DNA of 64,000 nt from an uncultured Candidatus Saccharibacteria bacterium (GTDB lineage: Bacteria > Patescibacteriota > Saccharimonadia > CAILAD01 > CAZGYV01). Position numbers and translations under genes: made by a program. Below the pieces are notes generated by a model. That model ran no database searches and had not been told where the DNA came from. It worked only from the letters and a program-made list of their open reading frames with translations. Below, in pieces: positions 9,155 to 17,866 of the stretch (its first letter is position 1; every line of letters begins with the position of its first letter). The stretch spans positions 15,829-79,828 of the forward strand of contig CAZGYV010000001.1 of NCBI GenBank assembly GCA_964530725.1. The letters are read 5' to 3'.

Positions 9155-9376
9155 ATGCCACGACAAAGAACATGGAGCGGTCAGATGCTCACAATATCAG
9201 ATAAACCTATCATTACCACAGGAGAAGCTCGCAAGATACTAGGCAAGGGTTACGAAGAGCTTTCAGATGAACACCTAATGGGAGTAATTGTTTCACTTTC
9301 TAAGATAGCAGACTATTTCCTGACTAGGATTAGTGTTCCAGAAAACTATAAGGTATGTGGTAAAATGGGGATATGA
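9155..9376 (+). CDS. small protein (73 aa), possible HTH/recombination directionality factor
   Basis: ATGA-coupled to the recombinase start. The segment ITTGEARKILGKGYEELSD looks like a helix-turn-helix. I recognise no family. Confidence 0.4.
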   Translation: MPRQRTWSGQMLTISDKPIITTGEARKILGKGYEELSDEHLMGVIVSLSKIADYFLTRISVPENYKVCGKMGI

Positions 9377-10971
9377 ATACGATGGATAAAAAAGAGCCAA
9401 TCAAAGTTTATGGTTATAAGCGTGTGTCTACTGAGGAGCAAGTTGATGGGATGTCTTTACATACTCAAGAGCTTGCAATTCAAGCCTACGCAGAGCAGCA
9501 CAATCTTGAGGTGGTGCATATCTTTCATGACGATGGAATATCCGCCAAAACAGCCAAGCGCCCGCAACTTCAAGAGATGCTCGCAAAACTCACAGCCAAA
9601 GATAACGAGGTGCGTGGTGTAGTTGTTTACAATCTCAGTCGTATCTCTCGTGATTTAGAGTCATACAGTCGTGATATAGGCTATCATCTTTCGGCAAAAG
9701 GCGTTCGTCTGTACTCTACAGTTGAAAACATTGACGATACACCAGAGGGTCGTTTGATGCGTAATATTGCACTCTCTATCCACCAGTACGATAACGATAC
9801 AAAAAGTCGAACAGTTAAAGACAATATGAAACAAGTTGCTCTTGAGGGTTGGTGGCAAGGCAATATCCCCTACGGATATAGCCGTGTTAAAGTACCGATT
9901 GGCATTAAGGACAAAGACGGTAAAACTAAGGAGCGTCTCACTCTCGAACCTGATAGCAATAACGACTTGAGCGACAAGATGCGTATGATGCTAGAGCGGT
10001 TCAGTGAGGGTGATTTGAAACAGTCCGAGCTTACTGATTATGCTGAGAGTATCGGCCTATACAGCCCAAAGGGTGAACGTTTTGCACCTCAGTCAATGAA
10101 TAACATTCTAAGAAATATTACCTATGCGGGCTTTGTGTGTAATAAGATGACAGACTTTGAACCTGTAAAGGCTAAACACGTAGGTCTTATCTCGCTTGAG
10201 ACATATTTACGTAATCAGGCTGTTCTTGATGGTCGTAAGCCTGATGAGGCGATGCCTCGCTTTACTGCTAGCTACCCTCTCAAGCACTCTCTGTTATGTA
10301 TTAACTGTCATAAACCCTTAACAGGTAGTGCACCTACTGGAGGTTCTGGTAAGAGCTCACCTCGCTATCACTGCACAAGATGTACGGGTACTGGCTCAAA
10401 AGGTCTTGATAGAACGAATGAGCTATTTGAAGCATTCTTAAACGATGTTACGCCTACAGATAAGATGATTAAGCTCTTTGATGTGATTGTACGCCGTATC
10501 GCCAAAGACAAGCTCTCAAACGTGAATAAGGCTATCAGCGATGTTAGAGACGATATGACCAAGATAGACACTGATATGCAGAAAGCACTTCAGTCTATGC
10601 TCGATGGCGATATCAGTAAGCAAGAGAAAGAAGACTACCAGTCGTCATTACGTATTAAGCGACTCAACCTAGAGGACGAACTTAATAAGCTACGAGACAT
10701 ACAGAGCCTCAATGAGTCTACTATTACCTATGTTTGTAACTTTATGGACGCTCCTGCTCGTATGTGGCAAGATGCAGACGCAGAGACAAAAGTCATCTTC
10801 CAACAGATGGTTACAGAGAACGGTATTGTATTCGACCTCAAGAACGAAAAGTTTGGAACGGACGGTTTGAGTATGTTTTACAGATTGAAAGACAACAAAA
10901 AAGACCCATCAAAGGCTGATGAGTCCCTTATGGTGATCCCACGGGGAATCGAACCCCGGTTACCAGGATGA
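9373..10971 (+). CDS. large serine recombinase (532 aa)
   Basis: Resolvase-type N-terminal domain (VYGYKRVSTEEQ with catalytic Ser; GISAKT..RPQLQEML; VVVYNLSRISRD). Recombinase domain (WQGNIPYGY). Zn-ribbon CINCH...YHCTRC. Coiled-coil C-terminal region. The last 41 nt overlap tRNA-Glu in antisense. Confidence 0.9.
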   Translation: MNTMDKKEPIKVYGYKRVSTEEQVDGMSLHTQELAIQAYAEQHNLEVVHIFHDDGISAKTAKRPQLQEMLAKLTAKDNEVRGVVVYNLSRISRDLESYSRDIGYHLSAKGVRLYSTVENIDDTPEGRLMRNIALSIHQYDNDTKSRTVKDNMKQVALEGWWQGNIPYGYSRVKVPIGIKDKDGKTKERLTLEPDSNNDLSDKMRMMLERFSEGDLKQSELTDYAESIGLYSPKGERFAPQSMNNILRNITYAGFVCNKMTDFEPVKAKHVGLISLETYLRNQAVLDGRKPDEAMPRFTASYPLKHSLLCINCHKPLTGSAPTGGSGKSSPRYHCTRCTGTGSKGLDRTNELFEAFLNDVTPTDKMIKLFDVIVRRIAKDKLSNVNKAISDVRDDMTKIDTDMQKALQSMLDGDISKQEKEDYQSSLRIKRLNLEDELNKLRDIQSLNESTITYVCNFMDAPARMWQDADAETKVIFQQMVTENGIVFDLKNEKFGTDGLSMFYRLKDNKKDPSKADESLMVIPRGIEPRLPG

Positions 10972-11005
10972 GAACCTGGCGTCCTAACCGCTAGACGATG
11001 GGACC
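10931..11005 (-). tRNA. tRNA-Glu (anticodon CUC), 75 nt with encoded CCA
   Basis: Manual cloverleaf: acceptor GGTCCCA/TGGGATC, D-arm GTCT-AGCGGTTA-GGAC, anticodon arm CCAGG-TTCTCAT-CCTGG, T-arm CGGGG-TTCGATT-CCCCG, discriminator A, then CCA. Confidence 0.9.
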
Positions 11006-12358: not shown

Positions 12359-12787
12359 TTAATTACTGATATTGACAGTCGTGGTAGTGGAGTTGGTCAC
12401 AGCAGCGTTACCACCATTGCCTGATTGAGCTGACTGACTGGAATTATTGCTGACTGAGACATTGGTCGAGCCGTCTTCGTGCTGAACAGTCGAGCTGTGC
12501 GTCGAGGAGACGGCACCCTCACCTGTTTCGCTCTGCTCACTTTTTTGCTCGATAGTGACTACCGGGTCTTGGCTTGGTTGCTCCATTTGCGGGTTCTCCT
12601 TTGTATCCGGTAGTTTAACGGCGGGCTTGATGGTGGTCTGTGTCGCAACTAGGCTCTGCGTGGCGGCCAGACTCACTCCGCCAAGAATGGCGAGTACAAA
12701 AAATACAGCGCCAATCTTGGTCCATAGTTGATAGGTTGGATTAGAGTGAATCACTATCGAACTCCTCCCCTGAATAATATTGTACAC
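12359..12787 (-). CDS. secreted Asn/Ser/Thr-rich protein with SipW-type-looking signal (start uncertain)
   Basis: Signal anchor WTKIGAVFFVLAILGGVSLAATQSLVATQT. The C-terminus ...SGNGGNAAVTNSTTTTVNISN parallels the C-terminal module of the upstream SipW ORF. Confidence 0.5.
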   Translation of the reverse strand: MYNIIQGRSSIVIHSNPTYQLWTKIGAVFFVLAILGGVSLAATQSLVATQTTIKPAVKLPDTKENPQMEQPSQDPVVTIEQKSEQSETGEGAVSSTHSSTVQHEDGSTNVSVSNNSSQSAQSGNGGNAAVTNSTTTTVNISN

Positions 12788-12820: not shown

Positions 12821-13744
12821 TTACGGCTGAATGTTGACAGTCGTATTGGTGTTGTTCGAATTTGTCGCCTCTCCGCCGCTGCTGGTTTGCTGATTATTGT
12901 TGATAATATTGATATTATTGGTGTTTTCCTCATAAATCGAGCAGTTGTCATTAAATGTAATTTCATTAATCGAGCCCGGGCCGGTATTAGTGATTGTGGC
13001 GCTATTTTCTCCTTGCCCGCAAGGATTGTTACCGCCCTGCGAGTTGACTGATATCGTGTTGCCAATCAGGCTAGCCTGCGAAAAAAGAGCTGCCCAGCCT
13101 ACGCCGCTAGCGGCTATAAAGATGAAAAACACAAAGACGGCGCGTTTTATCAGCCCATCTATACTGGAAGGATGCTTCCTGGGGCTTGCTTGGTCGGACG
13201 GGTGGTTCTGCGGAGGTTTATTGTCGTGATCGTTTTTTTGATTTTTCGGCTCAACCTCGGGGTGCTGAAGTGATCGCCGCAGCAGCCTAATTTCATCAAA
13301 AATTATAAACGCGGCCGGTATAAAGACAAAAATGATTAGTAGCGGCCAACCTCGGGCATAGCTGAACGCTTGGCCGATTTTTGGATAATGCCAAATTACT
13401 TTACCGACAACATTGCCGCCCATGATCTCTTGATCGGCTACTTGATTTGCGTCACCCTTGGTGATGAGAGTTGGCAAGCCATTGCTTTTTATTTCGACGA
13501 CGCGGTGAGTAATGGTTTGTTTCGGATTATTGGGGTTGATATAGGTAACGACATCACCGGATTTTAGTTGCCTAATCGGCTCGCGCTTGATGACTATCAG
13601 CGAGCCTTGCGGGATGGCGGGGTCCATACTGCCGGTTAGTACCGACATGGCTTTGAGGCCGGTTACAGGCAACAGAAAGACCGCGAGTATGGCCCCGCTG
13701 ACAACACAGATCGCAGCGGCTATAATTTTGATAGCTTTGATCAT
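12821..13744 (-). CDS. sipW: signal peptidase I, SipW/archaeal type, fused to an Asn-rich substrate-like C-terminal module
   Basis: LTGSMDPAI (catalytic Ser), ITHRVVEI (His) and TKGDAN, with N- and C-terminal TM helices within aa 1-155. Residues 199-307 form a second signal-anchor plus an ITNTGPGS...NTNTTVNIQP module. Confidence 0.75.
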   Translation of the reverse strand: MIKAIKIIAAAICVVSGAILAVFLLPVTGLKAMSVLTGSMDPAIPQGSLIVIKREPIRQLKSGDVVTYINPNNPKQTITHRVVEIKSNGLPTLITKGDANQVADQEIMGGNVVGKVIWHYPKIGQAFSYARGWPLLIIFVFIPAAFIIFDEIRLLRRSLQHPEVEPKNQKNDHDNKPPQNHPSDQASPRKHPSSIDGLIKRAVFVFFIFIAASGVGWAALFSQASLIGNTISVNSQGGNNPCGQGENSATITNTGPGSINEITFNDNCSIYEENTNNINIINNNQQTSSGGEATNSNNTNTTVNIQP

Positions 13745-13796: not shown

Positions 13797-14333
13797 TTAA
13801 GGTTGTGTGCCGGTAAACACGACATCAAAATTGTCAATGGTCGCCTGCGTGCCAGTAACAGCATCAGTGTCCACCTTGATTACGAGCTTGTAATTACTTG
13901 TCACACCAGCGTTGATCGTTTCTACTGCCACATTGCTGTTAATTAGATTGGCTAGTGTTGTGGTAACGACATTGCTGTCGTCTAGCCGGTTGATTTTAAC
14001 GTGAACTTTAGCAAAGTCAGTGAAGTTCGAGTAAGTTGGCACTACTGGTACATGAGCGGTTACGCCAAGATTGACGCCGCCGTTGTTTTTGAGGTCAAAC
14101 AGGAATGGCAGAGTATCATTTCCAGGTACAACATTGGTCCAGCTATTACCTTGGGCAGTCGAACCAAAAGTGCCAGTTGTATTGATCTGCAAGTCGGCCG
14201 AAGCGGTCGACAGCGTGTTGCTCGTCAAAGTAGCAGTTGAGCCTAGGTTCGCGAAGGTCACGCCTACTACCAGCGCCATAGTAGCACCAATAGAAACGAT
14301 TGCTCGCGAGATAGCCGCGCGCTTAGTCACCAT
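13797..14333 (-). CDS. TasA/camelysin-like protein with SipW-dependent-type signal peptide
   Basis: ATG MVTKRAAISRAIVSIGATMALVVGVTFANLGSTATLTSNTLSTASADLQI is preceded by an SD (GGAAGGGGGTGAtatgtATG). The N-terminal pattern (basic-hydrophobic-TFAxL...N.L...DL) is that of SipW-cognate signals, and the gene lies directly upstream of sipW. Confidence 0.6.
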   Translation of the reverse strand: MVTKRAAISRAIVSIGATMALVVGVTFANLGSTATLTSNTLSTASADLQINTTGTFGSTAQGNSWTNVVPGNDTLPFLFDLKNNGGVNLGVTAHVPVVPTYSNFTDFAKVHVKINRLDDSNVVTTTLANLINSNVAVETINAGVTSNYKLVIKVDTDAVTGTQATIDNFDVVFTGTQP

Positions 14334-14506
14334 ACATATCACCCCCTTCCTATATAGATTAGCCTCACAAAAGCTTAAGCTTTATTATACACCTTTCACA
14401 ATAATTACAATGAATTTTTGTACAGACTTATATAAATGCTAAAAAACATACTTTGCGCTATAATTGTAGTTAGAATGATTGTTATGCTATCTCAAGGATC
14501 ACTCCC

Positions 14507-15862
14507 ATTAAAAAGCCAGCACAAACCGGCTCCACTTTAGTCGAAATTGTTATTAGTTTGAGCATCGTGTCGGTGGTTATTTTGGCTGTCTTGTCGGTGA
14601 TGGTGTTTAATATGCAGATCATATCAAGCGGCAAATCAAGAGCTCTGGCGATGGCTTTGGCAAACGAAAAATTGGAAAATCTGCGCAATATGCCCTATGA
14701 CAGCTTGGCTACAGTGCATGGTCCGATCTATCCAGGAGGCTCTATCGTTGACGACGAGGATGTGACTGTTGGCGGTATCGCCATGGTTGTGCACACCGAT
14801 ATAAGTTATAACGACGATCCATTTGATGGCAATTTTGCCGGTACTATCGCCGGTAAGCCGCAGGATTTTTATCCCTATGACTACAAGAAAGTTACCATCA
14901 CGATCTACCTGAAGTCAGGCAATCGCAAACTGGCCAATATTAGTACCGACGTGGCCGGCAAAGTAGCCGAGACAGCCACGAACACCGGCATCATCTTGAT
15001 TAAAGTAATAGACGCCAATGGCAATCCGGTCGATGGCGCTTCCGTTCACCTAACAAACCCTACTCCAAGTCCGGCAGTTAATATCACGACCACGACCGAT
15101 AATCAGGGCCAGGTATTGATTCCCAAGATGCCACCGGACAGTGGCAACGGCTATCATCTGACAGCGACGAAAGCGGGCTTTTCGACTGATCAGACCTATC
15201 CCGTTTCCGTTCAAACACCCTCTCCGACTCAGCCCGATTTTAGTGTTCAGGCTCAACAGGTCGTAACCCAGACGTTGGCTATTGATCAGCTGGCTAATAC
15301 TCTAACAGTTAAAGCTATTGATATCAGTGGTAATCCAATTAGCGGGGCTGCTGTTAATATCCATGGTCAAAAAACTATTAATTCTAGCCCGATAGTCTAT
15401 AAGTATAGTTCGGTGCAGACGACAAATGGCAGCGGCGAGATCAGCCTGACAGCTTTGGAGTGGGATTCTTATGACTTGAGTGTTAGTGGGCACAGTATTC
15501 TCGCCTCCTCCCCTTACAAGCCCTTCGCTCTCAATCCTAGCGCTAGTCTGACTGTTACATTGACACTGGACACCCCGTCGACAAGCCGACCAATTATCGA
15601 AGCGGTCACGCCGAGTAGCGCGGTCTCCGGCAGCCCTAATGTCCAAATTGATATCACCGGACAGAACTTAAATGGTGCAACCTTTTTACTGCGCAAATCG
15701 GGTAGCGCTGATATTGTAGCGGGCAACCTGTCTTCACCCGATTCCAGTACGCTTTCTGGCACTCTTGATCTATCCGGCGCGGCAGTTGGCAACTGGGACA
15801 TTGTGGTGACAAAAAGTGGCCAATCAACCACTCAGTCAGGAGGATTTAATGTCGCTAACTAA
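14507..15862 (+). CDS. prepilin-type minor pilin with CarboxypepD_reg/Ig-like repeats (start codon non-canonical or frameshifted)
   Basis: The in-frame N-terminus (I)KKPAQTG|STLVEIVISLSIVSVVILAV is a class III signal (G-1, E+5). Downstream repeats include IKVIDANGNPVDGASVHL and VKAIDISGNPISGAAVNI. No ATG/GTG/TTG lies upstream in frame; an ATT at 14507 follows an AAGGA SD. Confidence 0.65.
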   Translation: MKKPAQTGSTLVEIVISLSIVSVVILAVLSVMVFNMQIISSGKSRALAMALANEKLENLRNMPYDSLATVHGPIYPGGSIVDDEDVTVGGIAMVVHTDISYNDDPFDGNFAGTIAGKPQDFYPYDYKKVTITIYLKSGNRKLANISTDVAGKVAETATNTGIILIKVIDANGNPVDGASVHLTNPTPSPAVNITTTTDNQGQVLIPKMPPDSGNGYHLTATKAGFSTDQTYPVSVQTPSPTQPDFSVQAQQVVTQTLAIDQLANTLTVKAIDISGNPISGAAVNIHGQKTINSSPIVYKYSSVQTTNGSGEISLTALEWDSYDLSVSGHSILASSPYKPFALNPSASLTVTLTLDTPSTSRPIIEAVTPSSAVSGSPNVQIDITGQNLNGATFLLRKSGSADIVAGNLSSPDSSTLSGTLDLSGAAVGNWDIVVTKSGQSTTQSGGFNVAN

Positions 15863-16454
15863 ATCGATCAACCCTTCCGCCCCGCGCGGATTGTCGCTGA
15901 TTGAGCTACTTATCGCAATGTCGATGGGGTTAGTTATCGGCATCGTGTTGACAAGCTTAATCGTTAATACCAGTCGCTCATATCGGTTCGCGCAGCTGCA
16001 ATCACAAACGGCCACCCAGATATCCACCTACTTGGAGCGCATGAGCCGGGTTTTACGCGGCTCGACTGATGTAGTTAGTGCCAGCTCGACAAGCCTAACT
16101 GTCTACGCATATTTTTCGCCGCGTGATAATGTGCCCGACAAGGTGCGTTATTTCGTGGACACCGATAATGCGCTTAAGGTGGGTGTCATCAAGGCGACGG
16201 GCAGTGCCCCCAACTACACCTATAACAGCTCCGATGAGACCGTGCAAACATTACTTTCTGACCTAAGACACGGCTCAACGCCGGTTTTTACCTACTATGA
16301 TGACAATAATAACCAGCTAACCGGCACCATTACGCCTGCTACAGTTAAGGAGATCGGCATTCGCCTGGAGCTCAACCCTGATCAGAGCATTTTAAAACAG
16401 AATGTAACGGGACAGACTAGGATAAATTTGCGCAATAGAAAGACTAACTTATGA
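15849..16454 (+). CDS. prepilin-type N-terminal cleavage/methylation domain protein (PilW-like minor pilin)
   Basis: SD AGGAGGatttaATG. Leader MSLTKSINPSAPRG|LSLIELLIAMSMGLVIGIVL (G-1, E+5). Confidence 0.75.
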   Translation: MSLTKSINPSAPRGLSLIELLIAMSMGLVIGIVLTSLIVNTSRSYRFAQLQSQTATQISTYLERMSRVLRGSTDVVSASSTSLTVYAYFSPRDNVPDKVRYFVDTDNALKVGVIKATGSAPNYTYNSSDETVQTLLSDLRHGSTPVFTYYDDNNNQLTGTITPATVKEIGIRLELNPDQSILKQNVTGQTRINLRNRKTNL

Positions 16455-17866
16455 AGTATCAATTAGGTCGTCTAAAAAATAACCGCCGTGGCTTCTCGAT
16501 GGTGCAAGTCATTATCACATCGGTATTCTTGATGAGTATCGCGCTTATTATGGCAACTTCAGCGGTGGTGAATTTAAAATATACCAGCTACGTAGAAAAA
16601 TCTTATGATGCCAACTCGGTTGCTGAGGCCGGTATAAATTATTATCTATGGCATTTGGCACACAACATCAGCGATTACTGTGACGGTCAGGCTTGTGGCA
16701 CGCAAGGGCCTGACGGCTACGGGCCGTTCACACATCAATACAAAGACAGTAGCGGTAAAGTAGTTGGTACTTACGAGCTATATATCAAGCCGCCGCCGGC
16801 CTATTCGAGCATGACGACAGTCAAGTCAATCGGTCGGATCAATGGCTTAAACAAATCCCGCGTCTTGCAGGCGCAGCTGGCTGTCCCATCGTTCGCGCAG
16901 TATGCTTTGCTGACCGGTACGGAGATTTGGATTGGCCCAAGCGAGCGAGTTAATGGCCCGCTGCACTCCAATGTCGGCGTCCACTTTGACGGTATCGCCG
17001 ATGGTCCGGTAACGGCTGCTAACGCGACTTACCGGCCAACTGCTCAGTTTGGCGGTGACGGGCAGATGCATAATGGTGTTTGGGGTAATGGCGGACCTCA
17101 GTCATATTGGAGCTTTCCGGTGCCGCCAGTTGACTTTAACGCTGTCACGGCGGACTTGCAAAAAATCAAAACCGACGCCCAGAGCAATGGCGTCTACCTG
17201 CCACCGACCAATCCCGGCAATCCCAGCTCAAAGCTAGGCTATTACCTAGAATTAAAATCAAACAAGTCAATTGATGTTTATCGTGTCACCCAAGAACGTT
17301 GCACTAGCCTATCGAGAACCTTCGTTGCCAACTACGCCAAGCCGGCCAATGGCTTGCTCTACGTTGAGGATAATGTCTGGGTGCAGTCTAAGTCTGGTGA
17401 TAGGTACAACGACCGCCTGACGATTGCGGCTGCCTACCTGCCCAGTAGCGCCGCGCGTGATAAATCGATTACTATCACCGGCGATATTTTATACAGTGCT
17501 AAAGACGGCACGGCCGCAATTGGCTTAATTGCTCAGAAAGACGTCAAGGTGAATAATGTAGCGCCATATAATCTAGAAATCGACGCTGCCCTGCTCGCTC
17601 AAAAAGGCCATACATTTTTTGAAAGCAGCACCCTTTCGGCCAATTGTAGCAATCAAGTCAAGGGTACGATAACTGTGCACGGCGCGATCAGCAGCTATCT
17701 ATTTTGGACCTGGACTTATGTTACGGGTGGCAACAATGTGATCGATGGCTACGCCACGACTCTCTCGACCTATGATAGTTATTTGAAGTTTAACCCGCCG
17801 CCGAGCTTTCCGACCACCGGCACTTTTTCGGTATTAAACTTTAGAGAATTACTAGAAAATCCTTGA
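16451..17866 (+). CDS. PilX-like large minor pilin / pilus tip-associated protein
   Basis: ATGA-coupled to the previous gene. N-terminus MKYQLGRLKNNRRG|FSMVQVIITSVFLMSIALIMA (pseudopilin-like, Q at +5); 471 aa. Confidence 0.6.
   Translation: MKYQLGRLKNNRRGFSMVQVIITSVFLMSIALIMATSAVVNLKYTSYVEKSYDANSVAEAGINYYLWHLAHNISDYCDGQACGTQGPDGYGPFTHQYKDSSGKVVGTYELYIKPPPAYSSMTTVKSIGRINGLNKSRVLQAQLAVPSFAQYALLTGTEIWIGPSERVNGPLHSNVGVHFDGIADGPVTAANATYRPTAQFGGDGQMHNGVWGNGGPQSYWSFPVPPVDFNAVTADLQKIKTDAQSNGVYLPPTNPGNPSSKLGYYLELKSNKSIDVYRVTQERCTSLSRTFVANYAKPANGLLYVEDNVWVQSKSGDRYNDRLTIAAAYLPSSAARDKSITITGDILYSAKDGTAAIGLIAQKDVKVNNVAPYNLEIDAALLAQKGHTFFESSTLSANCSNQVKGTITVHGAISSYLFWTWTYVTGGNNVIDGYATTLSTYDSYLKFNPPPSFPTTGTFSVLNFRELLENP

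Follow-up and report, generated by a model that had tools for sequence, protein, structure and literature searches.

A SipW-like signal peptidase of Saccharibacteria fused, behind an internal signal peptide, to a pilin-like strand and a surface module

A single open reading frame (ORF) in the genome of an uncultured Candidatus Saccharibacteria bacterium raises the question of why a signal peptidase gene should run on, in the same frame, into what looks like a second signal peptide and a secreted protein. The ORF occupies positions 12821–13744 on the minus strand of a 64,000-nt stretch of contig CAZGYV010000001.1 (assembly GCA_964530725.1), hereafter termed the window, and encodes 307 amino acids (aa) without interruption, comprising a SipW-type peptidase, a linker, an internal signal peptide, a strand and an NTGPGS module. 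An earlier note, made from the letters of the window, had offered two answers: an enzyme–substrate fusion cleaved in cis, or two genes that became one when a stop or start was lost. Sequence comparison strongly supports a fusion of enzyme and substrate and, on balance, we think it probable that the part behind the peptidase is cleaved at A218|A219 and serves as an accessory subunit resembling TapA of Bacillus subtilis. Positions below are those of the window and residue numbers those of the 307-aa ORF; the region on which the earlier note centered (12821–13150) corresponds to residues 199–307 and the stop codon.

The N-terminal half bears the features of a peptidase. The domain (residues 1–155, positions 13280–13744; all parts of the ORF lie on the minus strand) matches TIGR02228, the archaeal/endoplasmic reticulum (ER)-type signal peptidase I model, over residues 9–153 with 88.7 bits (cut-off, 51.85 bits). 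It contains two hydrophobic transmembrane (TM) segments at about residues 4–28 (TM1, 13661–13735) and 131–152 (TM2, 13289–13354) and the catalytic candidates Ser39 (13628–13630), His80 (13505–13507) and Asp98 (13451–13453), whose role we assign from general knowledge of SipW and Sec11. These three residues, in the contexts GSM, THR and GDAN, as well as D104, are invariant in an alignment of 25 homologs. Foldseek searches with the domain returned SEC11C/A as best matches (7p2q_A and 7p2p_A; E value 2.7e-6, TM score 0.63). An AlphaFold model of the full ORF contains a confident peptidase domain and helices at residues 2–28, 133–160 and 196–215, with low predicted local distance difference test (pLDDT) scores in the linker (<50) and residues 216–307 (<55). 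Taken together, the match above cut-off, the invariant Ser/His/Asp and the SEC11-like fold predict a competent enzyme. The Bacillus SipW equivalog model NF046067 gave 70.3 bits, below its cut-off of 190; the peptidase is, by sequence, SipW-like and, under the NCBI rule, no SipW ortholog. The peptides quoted in the earlier note (KRAVFVFFIFIAASGVGWAALFSQASLIGNTISV, ...ATITNTGPGSINEITF... with its TTVNIQP tail, and ...NSSQSAQSGNGGNAAVTNSTTTTVNISN from the next gene) are all present, and its placing of the end of the core near residue 155, followed by a polar linker, agrees with a TIGR02228 match to residue 153 and a linker of ~43 aa. A promoter and terminator scan found no signal exceeding shuffled background.

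The fusion is widespread among relatives. A word-indexed search yielded 612 homologs, of which the best ~54 measure 270–500 aa, cover 90–100% of the query at 31–94% identity and are annotated, if at all, as signal peptidase I from Candidatus Saccharimonadia. These homologs are fused rather than split into separate genes, which was the comparison suggested by the earlier note. The 25-homolog alignment shows conservation of both the second hydrophobic-plus-strand segment and the NTGPGS motif, and the internal motif was detected in 47 of the best 120 homologs; these 47 fused homologs underlie the cleavage-site and linker-charge statistics below. We also searched 1.84 billion cluster representatives exhaustively with HMMER and obtained 18,743 matches. 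Among the best 150 of these, 125 were at least 260 aa long, 81 carried the internal motif and 67 the NTGPGS module. A scan of GTDB genomes yielded 23 loci, nearly all in metagenome-assembled genomes of Saccharimonadia and mostly with the extended ORF. The ORF recurs with 0 nucleotide differences in an independent Logan assembly (SRR8893623), and the fusion is retained in a copy of 94% identity that comes from a different sample. Relative to that copy, the ratio of non-synonymous to synonymous substitution rates (dN/dS) is 0.06 for the peptidase, 0.39 for the linker and 0.13 for residues 199–307 (10 synonymous, 5 non-synonymous changes). By these comparisons, the fusion is conserved and under purifying selection, and is not a sequencing error or the product of a lost stop.

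What follows the peptidase has the layout of a segment that returns to the outside. The linker (residues 156–198, 13151–13279) is polar, Pro/Lys-rich and predicted to be cytoplasmic. Its length varies from 14 to 67 aa among the 25 aligned homologs, and its net charge is positive in 46 of the 47 fused homologs (mean +6.5), which by the positive-inside rule places it in the cytoplasm and the part behind the third helix on the side of the catalytic domain. Residues 199–218 (IKRAVFVFFIFIAASGVGWA, 13091–13150) then form an internal signal-peptide-like segment of n-h-c layout, consisting of K200-R201, a 17-residue h/c region and G-W-A|A, with a helix predicted at 196–215. The predicted site, G216-W217-A218|A219 (between bases 13091 and 13090), was assigned by analogy with the cleavage-site pattern of homologs and the T-F-A of the pilins described below. 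Position −1 is Ala in 43 of the fused homologs (Ser, Gly or Thr in the others), −3 is T/A/V/G in 47 of 47, Gly or Pro is frequent at −4 to −6, and the last basic residue precedes −1 by 18.8 residues on average. That the internal segment carries the features of cleaved signal peptides, mirroring the invariant T-F-A of the pilins, is strongly supported at the sequence level. One relative, P0354, combines in a single chain a TIGR02228 match (residues 25–171) with a match above cut-off (24.4 bits; cut-off, 19 bits) to TIGR04088, the SipW-dependent-type signal model, at residues 237–258; two others, P0006 and P0089, reached 14.9 and 13.9 bits, under the cut-off.

The signal peptide is not N-terminal in its precursor. 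Within residues 140–225, the sole in-frame ATG, GTG or TTG is a GTG at V205, which lies amid the hydrophobic stretch and lacks a Shine-Dalgarno-like sequence 5' of it. We therefore reject an internal translation start; the earlier note, too, had seen no obvious one. This internal position, inside a peptidase ORF, is the novel point of the architecture. Directly before the hydrophobic segment, homologs carry the motif R-R-x-(L/M/I)-D-G-(M/L/I/V), for example R-R-x-L-D-G-M, which is absent from the n-regions of the pilins (I-A-R-A); in the window, S-S-I-D-G-L closes the linker (residues 194–199, 13147–13164). A Tat-type reading of R-R-x-L-D-G was not adopted, as the window clade has S-S-I-D-G-L or P-N-I-D-G-L and no twin arginines.

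Whether the segment is cut at all separates our reading from its main rival, in which the internal segment is a permanent third TM helix, the strand sits in the basal pilin and the peptidase tethers the fiber to the membrane, the NTGPGS, LTD or other module lying beside it. The topology and the strand co-variation reported below would fit such an uncleaved tether equally well. Saccharibacteria-type envelopes may need a membrane anchor, the literature describes TapA as an anchoring protein, and a fusion appears pointless if its cargo departs immediately. Conservation of the cleavage site speaks against the tether: cleaved signals are typified by Ala at −1 (near-universal here), a small amino acid at −3, helix-breaking Gly/Pro between −4 and −6 and an h plus c region as short as ~19 aa, and the internal sites mirror the T-F-A of the pilins themselves. 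Moreover, cargo that is very large (1,640 aa in P0342) or adhesin-like suits display rather than a basal position. We consider the tether unlikely, although it is the strongest of the competing explanations.

The residues past the predicted site link the fusion to the neighboring gene. Residues 219–236 (ALFSQASLIGNTISVNSQ, with the strand-like stretch ALFSQASLIGNTISV; 13037–13090) make up a donor-strand-like segment, disordered in the monomer model, that was recognized by profile homology to pilin N-termini. The upstream gene (13797–14342, minus strand), kept in almost all loci examined, encodes a putative TasA-like pilin of 181 aa (if, as is probable, translation begins at the second Met, 178 aa) with the signal ...VVGVTFA|NLGSTATLTSNTLS, a mature form predicted to start at Asn32, and a C-terminal F.FTGTQ. 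We built a 21-column profile from the internal segment of fused peptidases only and searched it against all 594 ORFs that reach 80 aa or more in the loci retrieved. Its non-fused matches were the N-termini of the upstream genes (residues ~23–47) in ~20 loci, with E values from 1e-8 to 1e-3 (3e-5 for the window's own pilin). The earlier note's impression that the second signal anchor is akin to those of neighboring substrates is borne out, the internal segment being homologous to the signal peptide of the upstream pilin. Its stronger claim, that the frame continues into a copy of the enzyme's own substrate, holds only for the signal peptide together with ~18 residues at the mature N-terminus, which are pilin-like; the remainder is a distinct NTGPGS module.

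The cargo strand also co-varies with its partner. Over the 18 residues past the predicted cut, identity averages 8.48 of 18 positions within a locus as compared with 5.40 (s.d. 1.95) across loci, a mean reached in 0 of 100,000 permutations, and the cargo strand ranks its own pilin first in 11 of 21 loci. Paired cargo and pilin strands are, for example, LLTSNTVSLTGN and QLTSNTVALTNN (L015), AMSSQATLTDNTISS and ALSSTATLTDNTVSS (L024), AAVGTVGLTHNTFA and ASVGTVSLTGNTFA (L012), ...SLSGNTISA and ...TLSGNTISA (L030), and YVSDEESSSENTFST.TLDF and YFSDTETSTDNTFTAGTLDL (L031). As judged by profile and alignment, the cargo strand is homologous to the N-terminus of its cognate pilin and co-varies with it.

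This locus-by-locus tracking bears on a further alternative, in which the fusion serves co-expression only: the cargo would be a surface or adhesin module that SipW processes like any other substrate and that has no role in the fiber, and the likeness of the strands would reflect recognition by the peptidase. The great diversity of the cargo, which comprises NTGPGS, lamin-tail domain (LTD), Kre9-like immunoglobulin (Ig)-like, beta-helix and helical types, accords with this view, and so does the fact that many free-standing proteins contain the NTGPGS module downstream of an ordinary signal peptide. It leaves the post-cut stretch tracking its cognate pilin, and the equivalent stretch of TasA and TapA is a donor strand. 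No type I signal peptidase is known to read 15–20 residues past its cut. Co-expression as the whole explanation seems to us quite improbable, and less so only than the two alternatives taken up further below.

Evidence on the nature of the upstream neighbor comes from family models and folds. PF12389 (camelysin/TasA) is matched by 5 of 26 orthologous neighbors (best E value 1.2e-5) and is the sole family matched more than once; the neighbors in L005 and L031 are clear members of PF12389 or TIGR04088, with a strong match in L031. The model of the 181-aa pilin (pLDDT 73.9) is a beta-sandwich with its first 45 residues disordered, for which Foldseek found the donor-strand pilins FimA and FimF, archaeal thread and AbpA as best matches. 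For the window's own pilin, Pfam and NCBIfam offered no usable family. A sequence search of the PDB with the pilin profiles A3 and A6 gave nothing significant, the link to the TasA superfamily being by fold comparison only. On sequence and model grounds, we regard the neighbor as a putative TasA-like fiber subunit, for which a beta-sandwich with a free N-terminal donor strand is a candidate architecture.

Behind the strand, the cargo of the window is a truncated NTGPGS module (residues 250–307, 12824–12997), the start of which is flanked by Cys242 (13019–13021) and Cys268 (12941–12943). C242 is nearly invariant in the 25-homolog alignment and is followed by ITNTGPGS... and an Asn-rich tail that extends to the stop. 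A 74-position hidden Markov model (HMM) built from 112 free-standing secreted proteins matches residues 250–300 (E value 2.6e-12, HMM positions 1–51) and nothing else among the 269 ORFs of the window. Neither Pfam nor NCBIfam holds a family covering the module or the C-terminal half of the ORF. The free-standing proteins are 99–230 aa long, begin with ordinary signal peptides and contain the module once or twice. In some of them (P0163, P0201 and P0210), the C-terminus is made up of LPNTS, a hydrophobic segment and basic residues, a sortase-type sorting signal that suggests display on the cell wall. From these signals, the module appears to be extracytoplasmic and surface-associated.

Relatives differ in what follows the strand. 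Besides NTGPGS alone, as in the window, we found a lamin-tail domain either combined with NTGPGS, by itself or joined to a TasA-type segment (P0371), as well as a Kre9-like Ig domain, a helical region and a 1,640-aa beta-helix (P0342). P0342 is a 1,870-aa protein (L030, 3001–8613) in which SipW, an internal signal and the giant Beta_helix_4 cargo follow one another, with two pilin-like genes upstream. In the 646-aa P0371 (L031, 677–2617), SipW and an internal signal are joined to a TasA-type segment matching PF12389 and to the lamin-tail domain; a PF12389 gene lies 3 nt upstream. One genome contains two tandem cassettes of pilin and fused SipW (L003, 4284–7805; the same locus as L013), with a KNGGWQ... 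Cys-containing region as cargo in one and the NTGPGS module in the other, each strand matching its own pilin. A fused SipW–LTD gene with an upstream pilin-like gene also occurs on a 557-kb contig binned as Nevskiaceae (Gammaproteobacteria; L019, DATLCF010000002.1), either through mis-binning or as a rare occurrence outside Patescibacteria.

By its topology signals, the protein crosses the membrane three times, with TM1 running from inside to outside, the catalytic domain outside, TM2 leading back in and, after the basic cytoplasmic linker, a second SipW-type signal peptide going out again. Outside lie, in order, the G-W-A|A site, the ~18-residue strand matching the pilin and the Asn-rich NTGPGS module. 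On this basis, we infer the following sequence of events. The same peptidase molecule or a neighboring copy probably cuts A218|A219; an accessory subunit of 89 aa would thereby be freed, and the signal peptide would stay tethered to the enzyme. The freed strand could enter the acceptor groove of a pilin subunit, so that the cargo would act like TapA as initiator, cap or anchor of the fiber, made in a 1:1 ratio with the peptidase at the site of pilin processing. A more speculative extension, which we advance tentatively and hold for doubtful, is a self-priming platform: each peptidase might deliver exactly one donor-strand primer with a variable display module and then feed processed TasA-like subunits onto it. 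In that scheme, the display module might be of the NTGPGS, LTD or Ig type or else a giant beta-helix adhesin, and the cleaved signal peptide would remain tethered.

Several points weigh against cleavage and a TapA-like role. TIGR04088 (cut-off, 19 bits) has no match in the window segment, and the window's own pilin has no PF12389 match; assignment of the window to SipW-cognate signals and to TasA depends on homology to relatives that do reach these models. Co-variation of the strands alone is no demonstration of strand insertion and could also stem from gene conversion between neighbors or from shared recognition by the peptidase. The model of the cargo module is of low confidence (pLDDT <55), and a signal peptide tethered after cleavage might inhibit the enzyme. 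Finally, a SipW homolog in L020 (3905–4672) retains the linker and stops directly after R-S-I-D-G-I, with the cargo gone and the upstream pilin intact; such loss with retention of peptidase and pilin indicates that the cargo is not indispensable everywhere.

The tethered signal peptide also invites the idea of a pseudo-substrate or regulatory tail, in which it would occupy the enzyme's own active site and gate pilin processing. The sequence does keep it covalently linked to the enzyme after or without cleavage, and B. subtilis SipW is reported to have another, regulatory function, which maps to the C-terminus. Conserved extracellular modules and strand co-variation would be left unexplained, and we rate such a tail as very unlikely. 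Least tenable, to the point of being nearly inconceivable, is the other half of the earlier note's alternative, that an assembly error, frameshift or lost stop joined two genes here only; nothing was found in its favor, and against it stand the identical ORF in the independent assembly, the excess of synonymous changes in the C-terminal part and a layout shared by homologs down to ~31% identity, by 125 of the 150 best representatives at extended length, by more than 100 divergent cluster representatives and by GTDB Saccharimonadia genomes.

The arrangement resembles known fiber operons and departs from them in part. In tapA-sipW-tasA of B. subtilis and sipW-tasA/calY/capP of Bacillus cereus, as in the window, a dedicated ER/archaeal-type peptidase adjoins a TasA-family subunit (PMC10151520, PMC9674648, PMC13082335). 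These operons also include a low-abundance accessory whose N-terminal strand resembles the donor strand of the subunit. TapA donates its N-terminal strand to TasA (PMC10151520), the stretch of TasA and TapA after the cut serving as donor strand (PMC10151520, PMC9674648). Both TapA and SipW occur in small amounts, and the stop and start codons of their genes overlap (PMC10151520); their scarcity relative to TasA and this overlap fit a 1:1 fusion. The window has the order pilin, peptidase with accessory, and small protein. It differs from tapA-sipW-tasA in that an internal signal peptide precedes the accessory, which is translated as the peptidase's C-terminal half, and in that its globular part is unrelated to that of TapA or CapP (NTGPGS here; LTD, Ig and beta-helix in relatives). 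The cargo has no homology to TapA, showing no Pfam or NCBIfam match and having a module of another, unnamed family; by analogy, it would work like TapA without being a TapA homolog.

Other systems share single features. SipA/LepA-type homologs of streptococcal sortase pili (PDB 4n31) match structurally and likewise dedicate a signal-peptidase fold to pilus assembly, but SipA lacks catalytic residues and is a chaperone for sortase-linked pili, whereas the window protein keeps Ser/His/Asp and stands beside a TasA-like, non-sortase subunit. Free-standing NTGPGS proteins of Saccharimonadia/Patescibacteria have the same ~74-residue Asn/Ser/Thr-rich module after a signal peptide; in the window, it is internal to a peptidase ORF, follows a pilin-like strand and spans ~51 of 74 positions. 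Papers on archaeal TasA-superfamily filaments (AbpA/AbpB bundling pili, AbpX and the cannulae of CanX) report no peptidase–accessory fusion, and these systems are archaeal, whereas that of the window belongs to Patescibacteria. The literature searched reports signal peptidase genes beside TasA-like genes in bacteria and archaea, with no such fusion and no such system in Patescibacteria; searches that paired SipW with Patescibacteria or with Saccharibacteria, or that used the motif NTGPGS, gave no relevant result. Databases name the homologs only 'signal peptidase I'. A peptidase–accessory fusion behind an internal signal peptide is thus previously undescribed in the searched literature and, as far as sequence comparison reaches, the case for the architecture is solid.

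Downstream of the fusion, a gene at 12359–12787 (minus strand) encodes a protein of 142 aa in which a single hydrophobic segment and an acidic linker are combined with a C-terminus like the second half of the cargo module; it is conserved in this position in L001 and L032. The likeness, noticed before as one of composition and termini, exceeds composition, with a Smith–Waterman score of 79 as compared with 41 ± 5.9 for shuffled sequences (z = 6.5; 0 of 2000). The internal-segment profile leaves this protein unmatched, the module HMM gives a marginal E value of 0.09, and Pfam and NCBIfam offer no usable family; we refrain from counting it among the substrates as a third one.

On the other side, divergent from the operon, three genes with prepilin-like hydrophobic N-termini occupy 14558–17866 (plus strand) and may encode type IV pilus or pseudopilin components. 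The first (14558–15862, plus strand), with CarboxypepD_reg, SpaA and Big_1 domains, is also conserved beside the cassette in L032. Farther away, a large serine recombinase gene with Resolvase and Recombinase domains (9373–10971, plus strand) ends in a tRNA-Glu(CTC) gene (10931–11005, minus strand), and there seems to be an integrative element at this tRNA gene in the genome of the window. In the relatives L001 and L032, what comes after the DUF3048 gene beside the operon is instead a cytidylate kinase gene.

Bacillus biofilms have TasA-type fibers as their chief protein scaffold, and relatives of these fibers occur throughout the archaea; how the fibers are initiated and anchored, and what TapA and CapP do, is still debated. 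An accessory physically joined to its dedicated peptidase provides an evolutionary argument that initiator and peptidase cooperate, at one site and in fixed proportion. The known surface organelles of Saccharibacteria, for whose lifestyle attachment to host bacteria is central, are type IV pili; the fusion points to a TasA-like fiber system in this group. Its variable cargo (NTGPGS, lamin-tail, Ig-like and the 1,640-aa beta-helix) looks like a swappable set of adhesins, and an enzyme with an internal signal-peptide substrate offers a compact system for studying cleavage in cis and in trans by a type I signal peptidase. Should the self-priming platform hold true, episymbiotic Patescibacteria would mount interchangeable adhesins on a second, non-type-IV class of fiber, and the fusion would be a natural 'Rosetta stone' for TapA-like factors that act in physical association with SipW.

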